Shown here piece after piece: positions 8,870 through 60,220 of a DNA stretch of 64,000 bases. The stretch's first letter is position 1; every line of letters begins with the position of its first letter. The stretch is from Dehalococcoidia bacterium (GTDB lineage Bacteria > Chloroflexota > Dehalococcoidia > Dehalococcoidales > Fen-1064). Below the pieces are notes generated by a model, which worked only from the letters and a program-made list of their open reading frames with translations, was not told where the DNA came from and searched no databases. A program made the position numbers and the translations under genes. The stretch lies in NCBI GenBank assembly GCA_011170375.1, contig DUEV01000006.1, positions 89,255-153,254 on the forward strand, given 5' to 3'.

Positions 8870-9703
8870 CTAGAGTACGTACCTCTCAACGGCAGTCGCC
8901 ACACCACTGTGCTCAACATCAGGAACAATATGGTCGGCTACGGCTTTCAACTCATCAGGAGCATTAGCAACGGCAATCCCCAGCCCGGCCGCTGTCAACA
9001 ACGAGATGTCATTGGTACCATCGCCGATAGCCACGACCTGAGACAGCGGTATCCCCAGAAACGCCGCCAGCTCCTCCAAGGCCTTTCCCTTGGATACCTT
9101 CAGGCTGATAATATTCACCAGGTCTACATCGGGATAGACCGGTGTCTTTGTCCACGTGAAGTTGAGGCGGCCCTCGAAGTGACGGCAGAAAAGACGGGCC
9201 TGCGCCTTCTCTTCCGCCGAGCGCATCACCAGTGTCCCCTTGATAATACGCTCCTGCAGCCACACCTGGCTTAAGTCCGTGACGGTCGGCTCAAGCCCGA
9301 AGAACTTGCGGCGTATCTCAGTCCCCCAGTCCTCCTGCTTGACGTACAAATGGGTAGAGGAAAAGAGTTCAATCCTCATTTCCTGCTGATAAGCGAACTC
9401 GCCCATTTCCTTCACCAGTTCCGGTAATACCGGCTCCACGTAGACCTCTATATCACCGTGAACGTCAGCCACCAGGGCACCGTCAAAGAAGACATGATAT
9501 CCATCGAGCGAAAGTAACTCAAGAGTCTTCTGACAGGCCTGGGTCACCCGGCCGGTTGACAGGGCAACATGGACGCCTGCCTGTCTGGCACTGGCCAGTG
9601 CCTGCCTGTCCGTATCAGAAATGACACCAGCCTGGTTTATCAGCGTGCCGTCGATATCCACCACCAGGAGACGGGGGCGCTTTGTCAAGCCTTTTTCCTC
9701 CAT
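8870..9703 (-). CDS. Cof-type HAD-IIB phosphatase
   Basis: 277 aa. LLVVDIDGTL motif I, STGR motif II, GDGTNDISLL motif IV. Confidence 0.85.
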   Translation of the reverse strand: MEEKGLTKRPRLLVVDIDGTLINQAGVISDTDRQALASARQAGVHVALSTGRVTQACQKTLELLSLDGYHVFFDGALVADVHGDIEVYVEPVLPELVKEMGEFAYQQEMRIELFSSTHLYVKQEDWGTEIRRKFFGLEPTVTDLSQVWLQERIIKGTLVMRSAEEKAQARLFCRHFEGRLNFTWTKTPVYPDVDLVNIISLKVSKGKALEELAAFLGIPLSQVVAIGDGTNDISLLTAAGLGIAVANAPDELKAVADHIVPDVEHSGVATAVERYVL

Positions 9704-9744
9704 ATTGACCGATAGTAAACAGTGGAATTATGTCAATCTGTAGA

Positions 9745-9774
9745 TTGACGGACAGGTTCGCACTATGTTATATT
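9745..9774 (+). promoter_or_regulatory. Candidate sigma70-type promoter of the tRNA gene
   Basis: TTGACG (9745-9750), 18-nt spacer, TATATT (9769-9774). The tRNA starts 11 nt downstream. Confidence 0.5.
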
Positions 9775-9784
9775 TGACCTGCAC

Positions 9785-9857
<73 letters not shown>

Positions 9858-9884: not shown

Positions 9885-9893
9885 ATTATAGCA
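9885..9893 (-). promoter_or_regulatory. Minus-strand extended -10 box (TGCTATAAT) in the conserved tail downstream of the tRNA
   Basis: Plus strand ATTATAGCA reads TGCTATAAT on the minus strand. The same box sits in front of nrpR and the crotonase gene. Confidence 0.4.
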
Positions 9894-10611
9894 TATCGCT
9901 GGCTGGTTGAACGAGAAGCGAACACAACGGAAGTGATAACCAGGTATCTGTATGTTCAAGATTTTACAGGCTTCTACCGATAACTTGCATCATCGACAGT
10001 CACCCGGAAAAATTCACCGTCTGACTATTTAAATCATTGTCTCTGAGAATAGATGTTTACTTTATACACGGTAAACTCATAAATAATATCATGCAGTAAT
10101 GTTAGAAAAATCGTTTTTCTACTTCGGTGTGATAGCAAGTCGCATAGACCAATAACTTGTTGAGTTGAAGTTTACGTACTACTCATGCTAGACCACGCTC
10201 GGATTCTTGGTAGAATACTTACGGTATGCCGCATAGATCTATTTATCCTTAATCTCTAGTCCTTTCACCTTTCCCTAACAATTAGTCATAATGTGAAATT
10301 TCAAGAAATAGCTAAGTTATCAATCCCTGTCAGGCAGTTAGACTCAAGACTTTTTCGTTTGATTTCAGCATAGGACAATAATCGCTAGCGTTATATTTGA
10401 AATCCTAGCTAGATTATCTCCTCTTTCCAGAATTGGAGACCGTAATCAGTTTTTAAGGCTGCCTTACATCTTTACACCCACCATTTTAAAATGAGGTTTT
10501 GTATTTTAGGGAATTAATTACATCCCTTTTCTCTCGACAGGTAGCGCATTTCTCAGGCCGCCTAAAAGTGCGTTAAAGGCACCAAGATATATTCCGGACT
10601 CTAACGAATGC

Positions 10612-10640
10612 TTGAATATCATTAGGTAGAAGCGTAATAT
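10612..10640 (+). promoter_or_regulatory. Candidate promoter for the AOR gene
   Basis: TTGAAT (10612-10617), 17-nt spacer, TAATAT (10635-10640). The predicted leader contains stem GTCAGTAA (10657-10664) / TTACTGAC (10698-10705) with inner ATTAG/CTAAT. Confidence 0.45.
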
Positions 10641-10728
10641 TACCGTTACAGCTTGTGTCAGTAATTATTAGCTGATTGAGGCAACCCTAATTTACGGTTA
10701 CTGACAAGCAAGACAAGGAGGGTGAATT

Positions 10729-40861: not shown

Positions 40862-40945
40862 TCCTCCCCTCCGAATATTATCAGATACATTGATTGAGGC
40901 AGTAGGTGGAATTCGACGTGCTACTCACAACTTTCGTAACAGGCA

Positions 40946-40954
40946 TGCTATAAT
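40946..40954 (+). promoter_or_regulatory. Extended -10 promoter box TGCTATAAT upstream of nrpR
   Basis: GCATGCTATAAT at 40943-40954, 38 nt before the TTG start of nrpR. Confidence 0.5.
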
Positions 40955-41987: not shown

Positions 41988-42279
41988 CCCGAATATCCTG
42001 TCCTATCATGGATTTCGCTCTATTAGAAAGCGACCGAGCTTTATGCGGTAGAATTGCTCGGTTCCCGACGTTACTTCCATCGCCCTTCGCGACTGAAGAA
42101 AAAGTGTGAAATACTCGTGCTCAGTCTGCTTTCGGCAACGGTGATTCCCTAGGAAATGGAGAAGCTTCTTGGAAGGAGACCGACGGCCATGCTTTACTTG
42201 GGAAATGTACGACTTACTGAATTTGCTTAACTCGGCGATTTACGTTACGCTTAAGGAGTTAAGCAACCGTAGCGGGTGT

Positions 42280-42364
42280 GAGACCTCATAAGCCTTTGGT
42301 CGTGGGTTCGAATCCCCCCGCTGCCACTTTTTATTTCCCCACACTACCACAAAATTATAGCATA
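42280..42364 (+). repeat. Repeat copy C1: 3' 47 nt of tRNA-Met plus conserved tail
   Basis: 42280-42326 matches tRNA positions 27-73 at 44/47. TTATAGCATA at 42355-42364, 28 nt after the tRNA end, the same spacing as in the real gene. Confidence 0.85.
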
Positions 42365-42410: not shown

Positions 42411-43319
42411 ATGAGTAGAATTACTTTTGCAACCATGGCAACTCGGAATAACCTCACACGGGCCATCATGCTGTTTGATAGCCTACGAACGTTCGGTGGC
42501 GAACTCGGTGATTCTCTCTGTATCATACTTGTCCCTGAAAAGGGAGAGCCTTTACCCGATAAAGCAAGAGAACAGCTTAGCTTACTGGATGTACGCCTAT
42601 TACCTTTTGATATGGACGAGGGAGCCGTACGGTTCCCGCTCGCTTCAGTAGTTTATGCAGCAGCCAGAGCAGAGCAGCAGGTACACGATGAAACTGAAAT
42701 ATTGGTCTGGACGAATGAGGACACGCTGATAGTCAGCCCACCATCGGACTTTCTACTCGAAGAAGGTATTAATTTTGCCTACAGACCGGTACATCATACC
42801 AAGATTAGCTCAGTCTATGGCAAACCTCCGGATGATTTCTGGTCACTGATATATCAGTACTGCGGCATTGAGGAAGGCAAGGCGTTTCCTATGGAGACCT
42901 GTACCAGGGACAACACAATAAGGGCGCACTTTAATGCCGGACTGCTTGTGGTAAGACCAGAGCAACTTTTACTGGAGAAATGGCTTGACCATTTCAGGGA
43001 GCTATATCAACATCCTGATTTTCGGCCGTTCTTCAAGGAGGACGTTCTTTATATGGTATTCATGCATCAGACGGTGCTATCAGGCGTTGTTCTAAGTATG
43101 TTTAAGAGACGGGAATTACTGGAACTCCCGGAGACCGTTAACTATCCACTCCATCTGCACCAAGAATATCCTATCGAATACCAGCCTCAGGCATTAAATA
43201 ATCTAATAACCTGCCGCTACGAGGGTATCGAAGATTTGCGGAATTCCTTGAAAACAATTCCGGTAGAAGAGCCTTTAAAAGGTTGGTTGAATGAAAGACT
43301 GGGGCCAATGGAGGTTTGA
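42411..43319 (+). CDS. Hypothetical protein (302 aa)
   Basis: Long ORF with AT-rich upstream region. No motif I can name. Confidence 0.45.
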   Translation: MSRITFATMATRNNLTRAIMLFDSLRTFGGELGDSLCIILVPEKGEPLPDKAREQLSLLDVRLLPFDMDEGAVRFPLASVVYAAARAEQQVHDETEILVWTNEDTLIVSPPSDFLLEEGINFAYRPVHHTKISSVYGKPPDDFWSLIYQYCGIEEGKAFPMETCTRDNTIRAHFNAGLLVVRPEQLLLEKWLDHFRELYQHPDFRPFFKEDVLYMVFMHQTVLSGVVLSMFKRRELLELPETVNYPLHLHQEYPIEYQPQALNNLITCRYEGIEDLRNSLKTIPVEEPLKGWLNERLGPMEV

Positions 43320-43352: not shown

Positions 43353-44105
43353 TTAAGCAGAGTCGATTCTCTTCTTGATTCTACTCCACGTGTTTGTAAT
43401 CAGGAAACTCTCCTCCATGTTGTCAACCATGCTGGTGAACTTGCCAATAGGCACCGACAGCGTTATCACATCCGGTGGAACAAAGGGTCTTGCCGAAGGG
43501 TCGAACATGCCAATTATTGCTTTAGGATGCTCTGAGTCCTTTTCAAGGCAGGGATACTGCACAATCGTGGAACAACCAGAGCCAAATGGAGCGGACACTG
43601 CATTTCTATCCACTTCGTCAAATCGGGCTAGGGTGAAGAGTCCTGAAAGAACATCAGGTTTTGCGTAAAAAATTATGACTTCTGGATCATCCGATTCATC
43701 TAACTTGTCCCATCTTTTGAACACTATAAACCGAGATGGTGCCTTAAATGTTGGCGTATTTTTCATTATTTCCTTAACAAGCTCCGGCGATTTGCAGTAA
43801 CGTTCGCCCTCCAGCCTGCCCGGAATCCCGTAAGAAAGGAAGTATTCAAAACCACGCATGATACCCTCTGCAAAGCCAAGATATCTCTTCCCTCCAGGAC
43901 AACCAATCGAATCTGCATCAAAGCACAGAGAATTCCCCTCCCTCACATCTGTTAACGCACCAATCACACACCTCGAAGTAGACCCCGGTTCAACCATCTT
44001 GGCATGCCCTTCCTCATCTGTGTAATAAAAGGTAATTGGCAGTTCGGCACTGCCAAAGTATTTATTCCAGAGTCTGATAAATGTATTCCTGGCATGCATG
44101 TCCAT
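43353..44105 (-). CDS. DUF169-family protein
   Basis: 250 aa. Pattern CVIGAL...GCPGGKRYLGF...FGSGCS resembles DUF169 proteins as I remember them. Confidence 0.6.
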   Translation of the reverse strand: MDMHARNTFIRLWNKYFGSAELPITFYYTDEEGHAKMVEPGSTSRCVIGALTDVREGNSLCFDADSIGCPGGKRYLGFAEGIMRGFEYFLSYGIPGRLEGERYCKSPELVKEIMKNTPTFKAPSRFIVFKRWDKLDESDDPEVIIFYAKPDVLSGLFTLARFDEVDRNAVSAPFGSGCSTIVQYPCLEKDSEHPKAIIGMFDPSARPFVPPDVITLSVPIGKFTSMVDNMEESFLITNTWSRIKKRIDSA

Positions 44106-44190: not shown

Positions 44191-44249
44191 GTTCGAATCC
44201 CTCCGCTGCCACTTTCTTATTTCCCAAGTACCTGCCTGATTATAGCATA
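44191..44249 (+). repeat. Repeat copy C3: last 21 nt of tRNA-Met plus conserved tail
   Basis: GTTCGAATCCCTCCGCTGCCA (21/21), then TTATAGCATA at 44240-44249 after 28 nt. The tail carries minus-strand TGCTATAAT (44239-44247) facing the DUF169 gene. Confidence 0.85.
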
Positions 44250-45324: not shown

Positions 45325-46944
45325 ATGCGAGTATGTTCGTTTATTAGCAGGATAGGCCGGGCAGCAAAGCTAGATGTCAAACTCTACCAAGAGGTAAAGG
45401 CCGACAGCAAAGCCAGCTGGCAGGCATTCCTTGTCGTTGTATTGGTCAGTCTGGCAATAAGCATTGGTATTGGTATAGCCGGCTGGTTCGCGTTGGCAGG
45501 AGCGTGGTCTATCTGGGGTATACTCGCTGTGCTGGTTAGCTCTGTTATTGTGTGGCTAATCTGGGCGTCCTTTGCCTATTTCGTCGGGACAAGAGTATTT
45601 AGACGCCCGGAGACATCAGCCTCAATGGGTGCGTTGCTACGCACGATTGGCTTCTCCAGTTCCCCCGGGGCGTTGGGCGTCTTAGTATTCATACCTATGG
45701 CAGGGGGTATCATATTGCTCGGTGTATCCGTATGGGCTCTTGCCGCTGGTGTCATAGCTGTCAAGCAATCACTAGCGTTCACCACCCGTCGTGCTATCGC
45801 AACCTGCCTCGTAAGCTGGTCCGCCTGCGTATTGACTGCAGCACTAACCATGATTCCATTATCATCTTATATTATCGATGGAACTTGCACATGCGGTAGC
45901 AGCTTTGATAATCAATTAAACTCGATAGTGAATGCCTACCGTTTCAGCATAGTACGATGGGAGATTGCCTCTATTCCGCATGAGTGGGGTCAGTGGTTCA
46001 GTATCAGCGGTGAGGATATTGATAACGCAGTCGATAAAGTTGTCGATTATTTCTCTCACGAAGGAGAACGAGATAAAGAACTGGGAGACACAGTAGAAAG
46101 GATTTTAGAGAGTCAGATTAAAGAAATCCTGGTTCAACAGGATATCTATGGATTCCCTCCCGTGAACCTTAAGCTGGGTGAATTGCCTCATTTACTTGTA
46201 ATCTCACCCCGAGACAAGATAGAAAGCATGAGAGAAATAATGCTGCTACCCGGCATTAGCCTCGAGGAAATTGAAGATATCGAGGCCAAGGTAGATGAAT
46301 TGGGCGTTTCCTCACTCGTAGTGGGCCTGGGTGGTTTCGGAGGAACATACCCCAGCTTCGTAACAAATAGTGCCAGCCTGAGGGCCACCATTAATACTAC
46401 GGTTGAAGAATGGATACATCAACACCTGGCCTTCAAACCCCTCGGATTCCGATATTTGCTAGATATCCTCGGTATAGCGCGAAATTATGAAGTTGCCACC
46501 ATGAATGAAACCGTGGCCGGTATAGTCAGTAAGGAAATCGGCGCAATTCTTTATGAGACGTATTACCGTGACAAGGAAGAAAGTGTTATCGACCATCCCG
46601 AAGATAATGCAGACGAATCAGGGTTCGATTTCAACCAGGAGATGAGAGAAATACGAATAGCAGTCGATGCCTTTTTGGCCCGGGGAGAGATTGAACTGGC
46701 CGAGCAGTATATGGAACAGAAGCGCGAATATCTGGCCTCACAGGGTTACCATATCAGGAAGTTGAATCAGGCCTATTTTGCCTGGTACGGAACATACGCC
46801 GACGAACCAACCTCAGTCAGCCCGATTGGAACAGAGTTAAGGGAATTAAGAGACAGTAGTGCCTCGTTGAAGGATTTTCTGGATACAGTCGCCCAAATGA
46901 CAAGCAGACAGGAGCTTAAAAGTACTGTCGAATCAATACGATAA
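45325..46944 (+). CDS. Membrane protein: Yip1-like 5-TM N-terminal domain fused to about 350 aa soluble domain of unknown function
   Basis: 539 aa. Hydrophobic segments in residues 30-190 resemble the Yip1 domain layout. The C-terminal part has no motif I recognise. Confidence 0.5.
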   Translation: MRVCSFISRIGRAAKLDVKLYQEVKADSKASWQAFLVVVLVSLAISIGIGIAGWFALAGAWSIWGILAVLVSSVIVWLIWASFAYFVGTRVFRRPETSASMGALLRTIGFSSSPGALGVLVFIPMAGGIILLGVSVWALAAGVIAVKQSLAFTTRRAIATCLVSWSACVLTAALTMIPLSSYIIDGTCTCGSSFDNQLNSIVNAYRFSIVRWEIASIPHEWGQWFSISGEDIDNAVDKVVDYFSHEGERDKELGDTVERILESQIKEILVQQDIYGFPPVNLKLGELPHLLVISPRDKIESMREIMLLPGISLEEIEDIEAKVDELGVSSLVVGLGGFGGTYPSFVTNSASLRATINTTVEEWIHQHLAFKPLGFRYLLDILGIARNYEVATMNETVAGIVSKEIGAILYETYYRDKEESVIDHPEDNADESGFDFNQEMREIRIAVDAFLARGEIELAEQYMEQKREYLASQGYHIRKLNQAYFAWYGTYADEPTSVSPIGTELRELRDSSASLKDFLDTVAQMTSRQELKSTVESIR

Positions 46945-47170: not shown

Positions 47171-48070
47171 ATGACAGACATTCAAGATGTATCACATGGT
47201 CTACTGGACCTCATTGGAAACACGCCACTAATCAGAATAGGCAACGTTTACGCCAAATTCGAGGGAATGAATCCCAGTGGTAGCATCAAGGACAGAGTTG
47301 CACTTGAAATAATAGAGGCTGCTGAAAGAGAGGGAAAATTACAGGAAGGTTACACAATAGTAGAAGCCAGCAGCGGAAATACTGGAATCTCTTTAGCCAT
47401 GGTAGCCGCTTTCAAAGGCTACAAGATGCTTGTGGTAATGCCCGAAAACATGAGCGAAGAGAGAAAACAGATGATGCGGGCATATAACGCGGAACTGGTT
47501 CTTACTTCCAAAAGTGGTAGCCTGATGGAAGCTATAGAGACAGCAGAGCAGATTGCCCAGAAACCAAAGACATTTTATGCAAGACAGTTTAGCAATCCCA
47601 ATAACATAAAAGCGCAGGAAAAGACTGGGCAAGAGATTCTCAAAGAAATAGGACCAGTGGATGCTGTTGTAGCTGGTGTTGGTACCGGCGGAACACTAAT
47701 GGGCATTTCAAACGTGATGAAAGAGGCCAATCCAGAAGTACGAGTAATAGCAGTCGAACCGGAAGAGGCTGCGGTGATGTTTGGCGGAAGTGATGTCAGG
47801 ATAAGAGAGCACCAGATACAGGGAATCGGTGACGGATTCATACCTCAGCTGATAGACATGAGTAGCGTTGATGAAGTTTTTACAGTCGATAGTCAGGAAG
47901 CTGTACATACAGCAAGAAGACTCTCGAAAGAATACGGACTATTAGTAGGAATAAGCTCCGGGGCTAACATGCTCATCGCGCAAAGGATATCAAGGGACTA
48001 CGGTAAGGTCGCCACGGTTCTACCGGATAGAGGAGAAAGATATCTGAGCATGAACCTGTTCAAAGAATGA
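47171..48070 (+). CDS. cysK: Cysteine synthase (O-acetylserine sulfhydrylase)
   Basis: 299 aa. NPSGSIKDR PLP-lysine motif, SSGNTG, GVGTGGT. Confidence 0.9.
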   Translation: MTDIQDVSHGLLDLIGNTPLIRIGNVYAKFEGMNPSGSIKDRVALEIIEAAEREGKLQEGYTIVEASSGNTGISLAMVAAFKGYKMLVVMPENMSEERKQMMRAYNAELVLTSKSGSLMEAIETAEQIAQKPKTFYARQFSNPNNIKAQEKTGQEILKEIGPVDAVVAGVGTGGTLMGISNVMKEANPEVRVIAVEPEEAAVMFGGSDVRIREHQIQGIGDGFIPQLIDMSSVDEVFTVDSQEAVHTARRLSKEYGLLVGISSGANMLIAQRISRDYGKVATVLPDRGERYLSMNLFKE

Positions 48071-49192: not shown

Positions 49193-49229
49193 GAAAGCAC
49201 CACCATTTGTATGGCGGTGCTTTCTTTCC
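49193..49229 (+). terminator. Rho-independent terminator after the pilin locus
   Basis: GAAAGCACCaCCA-tttgta-TGGcGGTGCTTTC followed by a T-rich tract. Confidence 0.65.
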
Positions 49230-49243
49230 CGCATTTTTCTAAA

Positions 49244-49302
49244 GGATTCAAATCCCTCCGCTGCTACTTTATTCGCTCACGCTACCACATTTTTATCACA
49301 TA
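49244..49302 (+). repeat. Repeat copy C4: tRNA-Met T-arm/acceptor end plus degenerate tail
   Basis: GGATTCAAATCCCTCCGCTGCTA (20/23 to the tRNA). Tail CTACCACA...TTATCACATA aligns with the C1 tail. Confidence 0.75.
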
Positions 49303-50098: not shown

Positions 50099-50227
50099 TT
50101 TGCTGTGGCACTGGTATTTACAGTGAATAGCGCTCAGGGCTGTTCTGAAATCTCTTCAAGGTAGAGATAGCAGTTACGAATCAGCACGCTTGATTCAGCC
50201 TAGCAGCACCTTGCTCTTTACCTATCG

Positions 50228-50252
50228 GTAGTTCAAATCTCTTAACTACTAC
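50228..50252 (+). repeat. Repeat copy C4b: strongly degenerate tRNA-end copy
   Basis: GTAGTTCAAATCTCTTAACTACTAC versus C3 GTAGTTCGAATCCCTCCGCTGCCAC (about 17/25). Overlaps the stop codon of the crotonase gene. Confidence 0.4.
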
Positions 50253-51040
50253 TCACCTTTGAAGACAGGGTCCCGCTTCTCCGTGAAGGAGCGTACACCC
50301 TCCCGGAAATCTTCCGTCTGGAAGAGTCGACCCTGAGCGAGTACCGAGAACTCCAGGTTAGACTCGTAGTCTGAACTAAGCCCCAGGCGCATTTGCCGCT
50401 TGGCTGTCTGGACAGCCAAGGGGGCATTATTGGCTATCTTTGTTGCCCATTCTCTGGTGGTCTGCTCTAACTCTTCATGAGGGACAACCACATTTACCAA
50501 ACCGATGCGCGCCGCCTCGGTAGCATCCATCCTTTCACCAAGGAACATAATTTCGCAGGCCTTGGCCCAGCCAATCAGCCGCGGCAGCAGCCAGTGGCCT
50601 CCGTTGTCGGGCACCAGCCCCCGCTTAACATGCATGTCTCCTATAACAGCCTTATCCGAGGCTATTCTGATATCGCAGAGCTGGGCCAGCTCAAAACCCC
50701 ATCCTATTGCCGGACCGTTGATGGAAGCAATCGTCGGTTTGTCCAGTGAAAGCATGAGGGTAGAGAGAGAAGGTCCACCGATTCTGATTCTTCTCTCGGT
50801 TCCACCCGAACCTGCTCCCTGACCACTGGCCTGAGCCGCCAGATCAAGCCCGGAGCAGAAACCTCTGCCGGCGCCGGTGATGACTATCACCCTGATATCA
50901 TTATCATCTCTAGCATCCTTAATGCCCGCCATGAGTCCCGATATCATCGAGCTTGTGAAAGCGTTGAGTCTATCAGGCCGATTCAATGTTAGCGTAGCAA
51001 CCGGTCCTTCTTTCGTGTAGATAATGTCCTGCGATTCCAT
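50249..51040 (-). CDS. Enoyl-CoA hydratase/isomerase (crotonase) family protein
   Basis: Crotonase motifs (VIVITGAGRGFCSG, GPAIGWGFELA). Preferred ATG at 51040 (MESQD), 5 nt after GAGGAGG. Confidence 0.85.
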   Translation of the reverse strand: MESQDIIYTKEGPVATLTLNRPDRLNAFTSSMISGLMAGIKDARDDNDIRVIVITGAGRGFCSGLDLAAQASGQGAGSGGTERRIRIGGPSLSTLMLSLDKPTIASINGPAIGWGFELAQLCDIRIASDKAVIGDMHVKRGLVPDNGGHWLLPRLIGWAKACEIMFLGERMDATEAARIGLVNVVVPHEELEQTTREWATKIANNAPLAVQTAKRQMRLGLSSDYESNLEFSVLAQGRLFQTEDFREGVRSFTEKRDPVFKGE

Positions 51041-51098
51041 CGAATTCCTCCTCTGCAACTTTATTAATTATTTCGCCACAACACTTGATTATAGCATG
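51041..51098 (+). repeat. Repeat copy C5: degenerate tRNA end plus conserved tail, doubling as RBS and promoter of the crotonase gene
   Basis: CGAATTCCTCCTCTGCAA versus CGAATCCCTCCGCTGCCA (15/18). TTATAGCATG at 51089-51098. Minus strand reads GCATGCTATAAT ... GAGGAGG ... ATG. Confidence 0.7.
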
Positions 51099-51219
51099 CT
51101 ACTGAAATACCTCACATCTTATCCAAAACAGGGATTGAAAAGCGCAAAAATAGTGAGTATGATAGTGCCACTCCCCAAAAACCGCCAATAGACCGGATAT
51201 TTTGGCAAGGAGGTCATAA

Positions 51220-60138: not shown

Positions 60139-60147
60139 ATTTTAGCA
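60139..60147 (-). promoter_or_regulatory. Minus-strand extended -10 box TGCTAAAAT upstream of the MoxR operon
   Basis: Plus strand ATTTTAGCA. The flanking GTTCACTGCTATTTTAGCATAA resembles the conserved tail of the tRNA-derived repeat. Confidence 0.4.
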
Positions 60148-60220
60148 TAAAGTACAGAACAAGGATAAGAAAACAGCAGGCCTAACGGCGGATAGTATGA
60201 GGAAAGGTATAGCAGGCAAT

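Follow-up and report, generated by a model that had tools for sequence, protein, structure and literature searches.

A short sequence that recurs 25-31 nucleotides (nt) beyond the 3' end of tRNA-Met, and of displaced fragments of this gene, in Dehalococcoidales is probably an extended -10 promoter located in the tRNA-Met attachment site, with the integrase of the elements inserted there as its original client and with a crotonase gene and a DUF169 gene as later genes that co-opted it. We analyzed it in a stretch of 64,000 nt from a Dehalococcoidia bacterium (contig DUEV01000006.1, positions 89,255 to 153,254), hereafter termed the window, whose first letter is position 1; loci from other genomes are given as L numbers. 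The only tRNA gene detected in the window by ARAGORN and Rfam is tRNA-Met(CAT) at 9785-9857 (+). Allowing up to four mismatches, its T-arm/acceptor 20-mer TTCGAATCCCTCCGCTGCCA is matched six times, always on the plus strand, starting at 9838 (unit C0), 42307 (C1), 43323 (C2), 44192 (C3), 49247 (C4) and 51039 (C5), compared with 0.07 in block shuffles; because shuffled sequence yields so few matches at this threshold, we regard C5, identical at 16 of 20 positions, as a true T-arm homologue. C0, C1, C3 and C5 carry ATTATAGCA on the plus strand 27-29 nt past the T-arm or tRNA end (the "tail"), which reads TGCTATAAT on the minus strand. Exact copies of TGCTATAAT are found at 9885-9893, 42354-42362, 44239-44247 and 51088-51096 on the minus strand and at 40946-40954 on the plus strand, i.e. 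five copies against 0.35 expected, a count of at least five being reached in none of 100 shuffles; the four on the minus strand, being members of a single repeat family, do not count as independent events. A preliminary description of this DNA had recognized the reverse complement of the tail as an extended -10 element (TGnTATAAT), and this is borne out for C0, C1, C3 and C5, as is the identity of the 12-mer GCATGCTATAAT at 51088-51099 (-) with the box preceding nrpR at 40943-40954 (+). The possibility raised there that such strings occur at this density by chance was checked within the window by the above counts. On the whole, the observations of that description were confirmed, and its interpretation appears partly supported.

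The tail is conserved, and its surroundings are not. Between C0 and C1, 13 of the 27 spacer positions differ, and the adjacent 11 bases, ATTATAGCATA, are identical at 11 of 11. We aligned 20 units, anchored on the hexamer: four from the window, eight from L002, L003 and L123 together, and single units from L001, L004, L013, L064, L087, L098, L102 and L110. T was found at -17 in 16 of the 20, a purine at -16 in 18, T at -15 in 18 and G at -14 in 18, position -13 was free (C in 15, G in three, T in two), and positions upstream of -17 carried at most 0.65 bit. The block conserved across the 20 units is TRTGnTATAAT, with variable flanks on both sides; in the four tail-bearing units of the window a perfect TATAAT is preceded by TGC, and TG at -15/-14 is present in 18 of the 20 units. 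The combination of TRTG (-17 to -14) with TGnTATAAT corresponds to the extended -10 element described for Gram-positive bacteria, and a perfect TGnTATAAT renders the -35 element dispensable (PMC2613000). The motif is also biased in its orientation: among 113 distinct contexts of 70 nt each that follow the T-arm 20-mer and were retrieved independently of the tail, 11 extended -10 matches are on the minus strand and 0 on the plus strand, the corresponding numbers for exact TATAAT hexamers being 11 and two. A Warman-type bidirectional -10 element (TAnnnTA) was considered and rejected from the sequence, as -6 is C or T and never A. Likewise rejected was an archaeal TATA box, a reading prompted by nrpR: the tRNA is of the bacterial type, and the genome matches metagenome-assembled genomes (MAGs) of Dehalococcoidales/Dehalococcoidia. 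A sub-lineage comprising L110, L102, L029, L073 and L113 shows, in addition, a conserved GATGGGGTTCGTGGGG approximately 20 nt to the right of TGGTATAAT-type tails.

The motif is not confined to the repeats. The window contains 34 extended -10-like matches, of which 18 are intergenic, intergenic sequence making up 11.6% of its length. Nine matches are located 11-134 nt upstream of a co-oriented start, namely those of tRNA-Met, HAD, nrpR, moxR, 14036 (minus), 19143, PALP (a pyridoxal-phosphate enzyme gene at 47171), DUF169 and crotonase. This distribution, spanning tRNA-Met, HAD, nrpR, moxR and other genes, supports the earlier suggestion that the box would be a promoter form of this organism. 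The TGCTAAAAT variant said to face the moxR operon is indeed there: it forms the core (60139-60147) of a box with the flank TTATGCTAAAAT, 36 nt upstream of moxR. At the site of the promoter of tRNA-Met itself (Table 1), L001, L002 and L013 carry TGCTATATT, and their tRNA-Met promoters read TATGCTATATT or TGTGCTATATT. The gap between HAD and tRNA-Met also contains an inverted repeat (9730-9750, GTCAAT-N6-ATTGAC), which places TTGAC -35-like elements back to back between the two divergent genes; L064 and L110 contain a comparable palindrome, ATTGACCGTCAAT. In another group of loci (L007, L012, L040, L074, L078, L091 and L116) we found GGATAAT on the minus strand (ATTATCC on the plus strand) 7-10 nt past the tRNA 3' end, and therefore antisense-reading promoters at the tRNA-Met attachment site may be more general.

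The C5 tail, which precedes the crotonase gene, is the best-supported functional copy, with a predicted promoter role. The start of the gene is the ATG at 51040-51038 and not an upstream TTG, the ECH_1 domain beginning 10 residues later, and GGAGG is found at 51051-51047, with a 6-nt spacing to the ATG. The minus strand of C5 reads GCATGCTATAAT, 30-31 nt, (T)GCAGAGGAGGAATTCG and ATG, so that the layout of box, spacer, GGAGG and ATG given in the preliminary description stands, its spacing of 30 nt being off by one. The claim that the crotonase Shine-Dalgarno sequence is supplied by the tRNA T-arm in antisense also holds, as the GGAGG is the antisense of the T-stem/acceptor homologue of C5. Crotonase orthologues in L002, L003 and L123 (60-86% identity) have all kept the whole arrangement, from the tail over some 30 nt of spacer and the T-arm homologue with its GGAGG to the ATG, although the spacer is different in each genome and the free position of the L123 tail is T (TATGTTATAAT). 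Crotonase homologues in unrelated surroundings (L124-L126, 76-84% identity) lack the unit and have ordinary upstream regions, which indicates that the unit belongs to the tRNA-Met array and not to the crotonase gene. The predicted 5' untranslated region (UTR) of crotonase is weakly structured (-6.5 kcal/mol, z = 0.23), whereas for the complete antisense tRNA at C0 a stable fold is predicted in which GGAGGG is paired (-31.4 kcal/mol, z = -2.0); this is in keeping with the Shine-Dalgarno sequence being released when the tRNA is cut short at the T-loop. At its other end the gene adjoins a decayed T-arm-like remnant, which is also present at the crotonase stop in L002 (5620-5650) and L123 (reverse-complement coordinate 5984). 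Since this remnant abuts the stop and C5 abuts the start, crotonase is a block of one gene flanked on either side by tRNA-like fragments. The fragment of L123 resembles the 3' end of another tRNA.

The second candidate client is DUF169. The C3 box does face this gene, as had been proposed, and lies 134 nt upstream of it, compared with 47 nt for the C5 tail and crotonase; the Shine-Dalgarno sequence of DUF169 is its own and does not come from the T-arm. A C3-type unit precedes DUF169 in the window, L003 and L123. In L002, DUF169 comes immediately after crotonase, with a decayed T-arm remnant in between, and the two would share a transcript.

The C1 tail had been described as pointing toward the 3' end of nrpR, but the first feature downstream is instead a tyrosine-integrase pseudogene (Table 1), which takes up all of the space from the nrpR stop to C1, the remaining part of the gene having been deleted. 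The remnant shows 75% identity (tblastn) to a 318-aa open reading frame (ORF) of L030 with a Phage_integrase domain (PF00589), and at the nucleotide level the nrpR-C1 interval of approximately 290 nt shares 73-75% identity with the sequence to the left of tRNA-Met fragments in L016 and L030. The remnant starts with an ATG (42289-42287) that is the reverse complement of the anticodon CAT of the tRNA fragment in C1. The same arrangement, with an integrase ORF starting at an antisense-anticodon ATG inside a displaced fragment (...GGCTTATGAG...), is found in L030, L016, L115, L007, L127/L128 and L129, the ORFs of L030, L016 and L115 being 318-321 aa long. With translation starting at the antisense anticodon, the integrase mRNA would have the antisense of the tRNA 3' half as its 5' UTR, and its promoter would have to be situated within the tRNA 3' end or a short way past it, where the tail is located in this lineage. 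The earlier idea that expression is built into the recombination site thus comes close to the mark. Such antisense-start sites were seen at L030:2880-2951, L127:4800-5060 and L129:410-670; the core of the attachment site contains the integrase start codon. In L005, L006, L019, L022, L041, L074, L100 and L116 there are 2-3 direct copies of TTGCTTAAC 60-90 nt past the tRNA 3' end, and the inverse GTTAAGCAA is found on the other arm, in the 5' coding region of the integrase (LLNSL), including the window at about 42220-42262. The TTGCTTAAC/GTTAAGCAA repeats are likely arm-type integrase sites.

Table 1. Features of the window that bear on the tRNA-Met repeat units, their tails and comparable boxes
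Feature	Position	Strand	Remarks
tRNA-Met promoter	9745-9774	+	TTGACG, 18 nt, TATATT with TG before (TGTTATATT, 9766-9774)
tRNA-Met (CAT)	9785-9857	+	ARAGORN; Rfam tRNA 68.5 bits; target of integration; all repeat units copy its 3' part
C0 tail, TATGCTATAAT	9885-9895	-	27 nt past tRNA 3' end; points antisense into tRNA-Met
HAD signals	9686-9735	-	TTG start 9688; GGAGG 9701-9697 (8 nt); candidate extended -10 TGACATAAT 9727-9735
nrpR box, GCATGCTATAAT	40943-40954	+	38 nt upstream of nrpR (NrpR domains); outside repeats; no -35 match
Tyrosine-integrase pseudogene	42012-42289	-	First ~90 codons; one in-frame stop, one frameshift
C1	42280-42326	+	Displaced tRNA-Met 3' half, anticodon stem to 3' end; original chromosomal copy
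C1 tail, TATGCTATAAT	42354-42364	-	64 nt upstream of integrase-remnant ATG
C2	43323-43342	+	T-loop-to-acceptor fragment, 3 mismatches; tail-less in window
DUF169	43353-44105	-	ATG 44105; own GGAGG, 86 nt from T-arm fragment
C3	44192-44211	+	T-loop-to-acceptor fragment, 0 mismatches
C3 tail, TATGCTATAAT	44239-44249	-	134 nt upstream of DUF169 ATG
C4	49247-49302	+	T-arm fragment, 2 mismatches; tail decayed
C4 tail (decayed), TTTATCACATA	49292-49302	+	Minus strand reads TGTGATAAA; T-12 and T-7 lost
Decayed T-arm-like remnant (TATCGGTAGTTCAAATC...)	50222-50248	+	Adjoins crotonase stop; homologous to C3 left flank
Enoyl-CoA hydratase (crotonase)	50249-51040	-	Pfam ECH_1 6.7e-63; ATG at T-loop edge of C5
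C5	51039-51058	+	T-arm/acceptor homologue, 16/20
C5 tail, CATGCTATAAT	51088-51098	-	47 nt upstream of crotonase ATG
moxR-operon box, TTATGCTAAAAT	60139-60150	-	36 nt upstream of moxR (AAA_3 domain); outside repeats

From the motif, the way it is conserved, its geometry, the integrase remnant and the crotonase arrangement kept in four genomes, all of which are observed in the sequences, we infer that RNA polymerase fires at the tail and that the integrase was its original client. Elements would integrate at the anticodon loop or the T-loop of tRNA-Met, carrying with them the 3' part of the tRNA and about 40 nt beyond it. This extension would bear a strong promoter without a -35 element, used by the housekeeping sigma factor and reading back over the core, and the tRNA-derived segment, transcribed in antisense, would form the 5' UTR of the gene that adjoins the crossover point. 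In the circular form and at the fragment-side junction the promoter would transcribe the gene at the core, which in intact elements would be the integrase, and at the tRNA-side junction a copy of the promoter would be left pointing into the tRNA, as at C0. Upon decay of the elements the promoter and the antisense tRNA leader would be retained where a useful gene lies behind them (crotonase, DUF169) and would drift otherwise (C4). The present state of the window would then comprise C0 and C1 as orphaned copies, crotonase and, more distantly, DUF169 as co-opted clients, a decayed copy in C4 and none in C2. The C0 tail, which faces the antisense of the tRNA and then HAD, apparently lies on the junction side derived from the inserted element and has become orphaned; antisense firing across the tRNA would be best seen as a by-product. 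The C1 tail now faces a pseudogene.

Several points weigh against this explanation. The invariance of the hexamer is partly by construction, because the units were selected on ATTATA, and hexamer variants exist: besides the decayed C4 tail there are TGGTATACT in L029 and TGCTATAGT in L096, which were found without hexamer selection and keep A-11 and T-7 (TATACT, TATAGT). A two-hexamer promoter scan found a -35 match at no tail, though, since the tails have no -35, such a scan neither supports nor refutes them. Intact integrases (L030, L115, L127, L129) belong to lineages whose flank has no perfect tail, and an intact integrase directly behind a TRTGnTATAAT tail was sought among the homologues of the remnant and none was recovered; these homologues are mostly short remnants themselves, L127 and L129 having the antisense-anticodon start without a perfect tail. 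The left-hand gene is convergent in about half of the independent units (C1, with nrpR and the integrase remnant; L002:2590, with p302, a gene described below; L087, L098 and L102), so that there is no obvious client there. For the same reason the claim that every unit carries an outward promoter and drives a cassette fails as a general statement: C2 has none in the window, yet its counterpart L002:2590 carries TATGCTATAAT, and C4 is decayed (TGTGATAAA). Statistics on gene orientation around the units speak for neither side, as about 75% of the window genes are on the plus strand and many of the units are orthologous. Finally, the tail persists beside the intact tRNA in six lineages with only HAD downstream, and an orphan model accounts for these tRNA-side tails only via repeated turnover of elements.

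A more far-reaching proposal, which we consider rather doubtful, is that the array is a working integron-like cassette platform, in which sites mimicking the tRNA 3' end would each carry a full expression signal made up of the TRTGnTATAAT promoter, the Shine-Dalgarno sequence from the antisense T-stem and, for the integrase, the antisense-anticodon start. A tyrosine integrase acting in trans would shuffle short promoterless genes, and insertion in the correct orientation would activate them (crotonase, DUF169 and others). In agreement with this, single-gene blocks have T-arm fragments on both sides, the order and content of the blocks vary among the window, L002, L003 and L123, and the crotonase ATG is located exactly at the T-loop edge.

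It is unlikely that the tail is primarily a recombination element (an arm-type or accessory-protein site of the integrase, or the crossover region) and that its likeness to a promoter is incidental. Such a role would agree with the presence of the tail in every well-preserved unit at a distance from the tRNA end that varies little (25-31 nt) and with the mosaic character of the flanks, as mosaics are expected from exchange in or near the tail: C3 combines a C0-type spacer with the C1-type right flank AACACCAGA, and the crotonase unit of L002 a C0-type spacer with ATATCG. Both roles can also coexist, since arm sites of the KplE1 integrase overlap the integrase -10 box (PMC2951348). However, the degeneracy of the tail (R at -16, free -13, free flanks) is the pattern of sigma-factor contacts, and the 11-12-mer also occurs before nrpR, moxR and the tRNA gene, where recombination is unexpected. 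Moreover, about 100 of the 113 contexts at the tRNA-Met site have no tail and show the TTGCTTAAC arm-like repeats instead, and the window ORFs scanned with Pfam include no intact recombinase.

The perfection of the tail next to spacers of only about 50% identity, between C0 and C1 as well as among L001, L002, L013, L064 and L110, is difficult to reconcile with the view that the tail is a neutral relic, whose copies are identical owing to recent duplication and gene conversion and whose promoter activity would be spurious. The variants, too, stay within the consensus (n = C, G or T; R = A or G), and the crotonase-linked copy has been kept in four genomes with a different spacer in each. Admittedly, the four window copies, as members of one repeat family, lack independence, a pseudogene or convergent genes lie in front of several copies, and C4 and some copies in other genomes have decayed, but overall we regard a neutral relic as quite improbable.

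The tail could also be the native promoter of HAD, or a promoter of a regulatory antisense RNA directed against tRNA-Met, in which case the array copies would be mere duplicates. HAD(-) is found directly beyond the tRNA at all seven tail-bearing intact tRNA loci (window, L001, L002, L004, L013/L017, L064 and L110), the HAD-tRNA spacer of about 90 nt contains no convincing proximal HAD promoter in L001, L002, L064 and L110, and inspection by eye revealed no terminator-like T-run between the tail and HAD on the minus strand. We nevertheless consider this reading very unlikely, as in the window, L013 and L017 there is a proximal candidate extended -10 box, TGACATAAT, 39 nt before the HAD start, the HAD-linked loci L037 and L025 have no intact tail, a transcript from the tail would run head-on against the strong tRNA promoter and through the stable antisense tRNA fold (-31.4 kcal/mol), and the position of crotonase and DUF169 behind tails would be left unexplained. 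The statement that HAD lacks a Shine-Dalgarno sequence has to be corrected: in an alignment of seven orthologous HAD loci the start codon is consistently TTG, except for ATG in L002, and follows a Shine-Dalgarno sequence of the GGAGG type at a distance of 7-9 nt; in the window these are TTG 9688 and, 8 nt before it, GGAGG 9701-9697. The ORF finder had selected an in-frame ATG at 9703, which overlaps the Shine-Dalgarno sequence (ATGGAGG) and has no counterpart in relatives.

We reject, as having practically no chance of being correct, the reading of the tail as part of a plus-strand promoter for the right-hand gene: nearly every tail-bearing unit does have a plus-strand gene start within 30-140 nt (p302, amidohydrolase, carboxylesterase, and genes in L087, L098, L102, L110 and L064), but the plus-strand hexamers TATAGC and TATACC lack T-7, TAGCAT is replaced by TACCAC or TAGTTG in other units, there is no consistent -35, extended -10 matches on the plus strand number 0 in the 113 contexts, about 75% of window genes are on this strand regardless, and the right-hand genes have candidate promoters of their own, e.g. 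TTGAAA-17-TATGAT at 51135-51163.

The units delimit a probable genomic island, with a GC content of 0.45-0.50 over approximately 10-51 kb, compared with about 0.55 outside. C0 and C1 form an 85-nt repeat of 81% identity that starts in the anticodon stem at GAGGACTCATAAGCC, and C2-C5 start at the T-loop and divide short gene blocks, namely p302 (a 302-aa ORF, 42411-43319); DUF169; amidohydrolase, a 539-aa ORF, PALP and a PKD-domain protein; and alpha/beta-hydrolase with crotonase. In L001, L002, L004 and L013/L017 the order is HAD(-), tRNA-Met(+), spacer with tail, and a p302 homologue; L013/L017 and L002, the closest relatives, lack the insert of the window, and in L001, L002 and L013 the tRNA, tail and p302 follow one another without this 32-kb block. 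The spacer and right flank of C1 are almost identical to the native tRNA-Met flank of L002 and L003. Because relatives join tRNA-Met directly to p302 with a C1-like flank, the comparison indicates that the block at 9.9-42.3 kb is an insertion at the anticodon loop of tRNA-Met, with C0 and C1 as its two junctions. Genes of the array are also found downstream of tRNA-Met in L002, L003 and L123, partly reordered and with other insertions. A pattern search for the tRNA end with the tail in one-genome-per-species contigs matched only MAGs of Dehalococcoidales/Dehalococcoidia (L001-L004), and viral contigs searched for the T-arm 20-mer yielded no match. In the Rfam scan of the window the tRNA was the sole match, so the spacer and tail correspond to no known RNA.

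The insert (9896-42279) encodes aldehyde:ferredoxin oxidoreductase, a branched-chain amino-acid ABC transporter, glutamate synthase (GOGAT subunits) and asparagine synthase (AsnB), and further Amt, PII, glutamine synthetase, NadE, CarAB and NrpR, a regulator best known from Euryarchaeota. It thus holds an almost full nitrogen-assimilation set plus NrpR, and no intact mobility gene was found in it. The first gene past C0 is aldehyde:ferredoxin oxidoreductase and not an integrase, and no intact recombinase or integrase domain was detected in the window ORFs scanned with Pfam, which comprised nearly all ORFs of at least 80 aa. The 830-nt gap after the C0 tail (9896-10728) is AT-rich, and contains no ORF of at least 60 aa; neither blastn nor tblastx found similarity between it and any fetched locus, and Rfam gave no match. 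The gap may represent the degraded left arm of the element. Two conserved proteins of the array, p302 and the 539-aa ORF (45325-46944), belong to no Pfam family; p302 is natively the next gene after tRNA-Met in five related genomes (62-81% identity). Just to the left of C4, at 49194-49232, we noted a strong hairpin followed by a T-run (AGCACCACCA-TTTGTA-TGGCGGTGCT-TTCTTT), which looks like an intrinsic terminator of the upstream plus-strand genes.

To our knowledge, the promoter architecture of uncultured Chloroflexota is essentially uncharted, and our search of the literature for mapped promoters in Dehalococcoides found nothing usable. If the proposed explanation is true, the tRNA 3' end and its flank are recycled in antisense as a complete expression module, the flank of the attachment site providing the promoter, the T-stem the Shine-Dalgarno sequence and the anticodon the start codon. 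This would explain the continued expression of accessory genes without an integrase after the decay of the element in the streamlined genomes of Dehalococcoidia, and the combination of a tRNA-Met 3' fragment with TRTGnTATAAT could serve as a signature for mapping island boundaries and promoters in uncultured Chloroflexota. Integrase promoters in tRNA attachment regions and tandem islands at tRNA or tmRNA genes are already established, and nothing is overturned here. The new aspects would be the tRNA-Met target, the antisense-anticodon start, the antisense-T-stem Shine-Dalgarno sequence and the takeover of the promoter by metabolic genes.

With the extended -10 promoters of the sigma-70 family (galP1, lambda pRE*, the "-16 region" of B. 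subtilis) the tail shares TRTGnTATAAT without a recognizable -35 and, where the box faces a co-oriented GGAGG-bearing ORF, a position 36-134 nt upstream of it, this form recurring at several unrelated genes of the window; it differs in being part of a repeated tRNA-flank unit, known from sequence in Chloroflexota (Dehalococcoidales). The closest precedent for the integrase as client is intS of KplE1 at argW, where an integrase promoter overlapping the attachment region has been experimentally established, and such an overlap is predicted for 61.5% of tRNA-associated integrase genes (PMC2951348). Both systems have a promoter, predicted in the present case, by the tRNA 3' end that is directed toward the abutting gene, and a tyrosine integrase of the Phage_integrase family. 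However, in the present case the integrase abuts a displaced tRNA fragment instead of an intact tRNA, its start codon is the antisense anticodon and its entire 5' UTR would be antisense tRNA, the integrase of the window is dead and the predicted clients are metabolic genes, the system being known from sequence alone. The array also resembles Islander-type islands, in particular the well-described tandem islands at ssrA (tmRNA) of Dehalococcoides, which are partly integrase-less and are bounded by repeats of the tmRNA 3' end (PMC3146451): in both, an intact target is followed by displaced 3' fragments that separate accessory blocks, some of the blocks are integrase-less ("accretion"), and the hosts belong to the same bacterial class. 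It differs from the ssrA islands in its tRNA-Met target, in the use of a tyrosine integrase rather than the serine recombinase DsiB, in units that reach about 40 nt past the gene and include the predicted promoter, and in that some blocks are single genes. As in integrons, with their Pc promoter and attI site, a gene at the edge of a recombination site would borrow its promoter, and here also its Shine-Dalgarno sequence, from that site. We nevertheless reject an identification as an integron, as the Pfam scan of the intact window ORFs detected no IntI and every repeat is a plus-strand copy, in direct orientation, of a tRNA 3' end and not a site of the attC type, for which no dedicated search was made; there is, moreover, neither an attI nor a single Pc, and only genes of one orientation can benefit from the sites.

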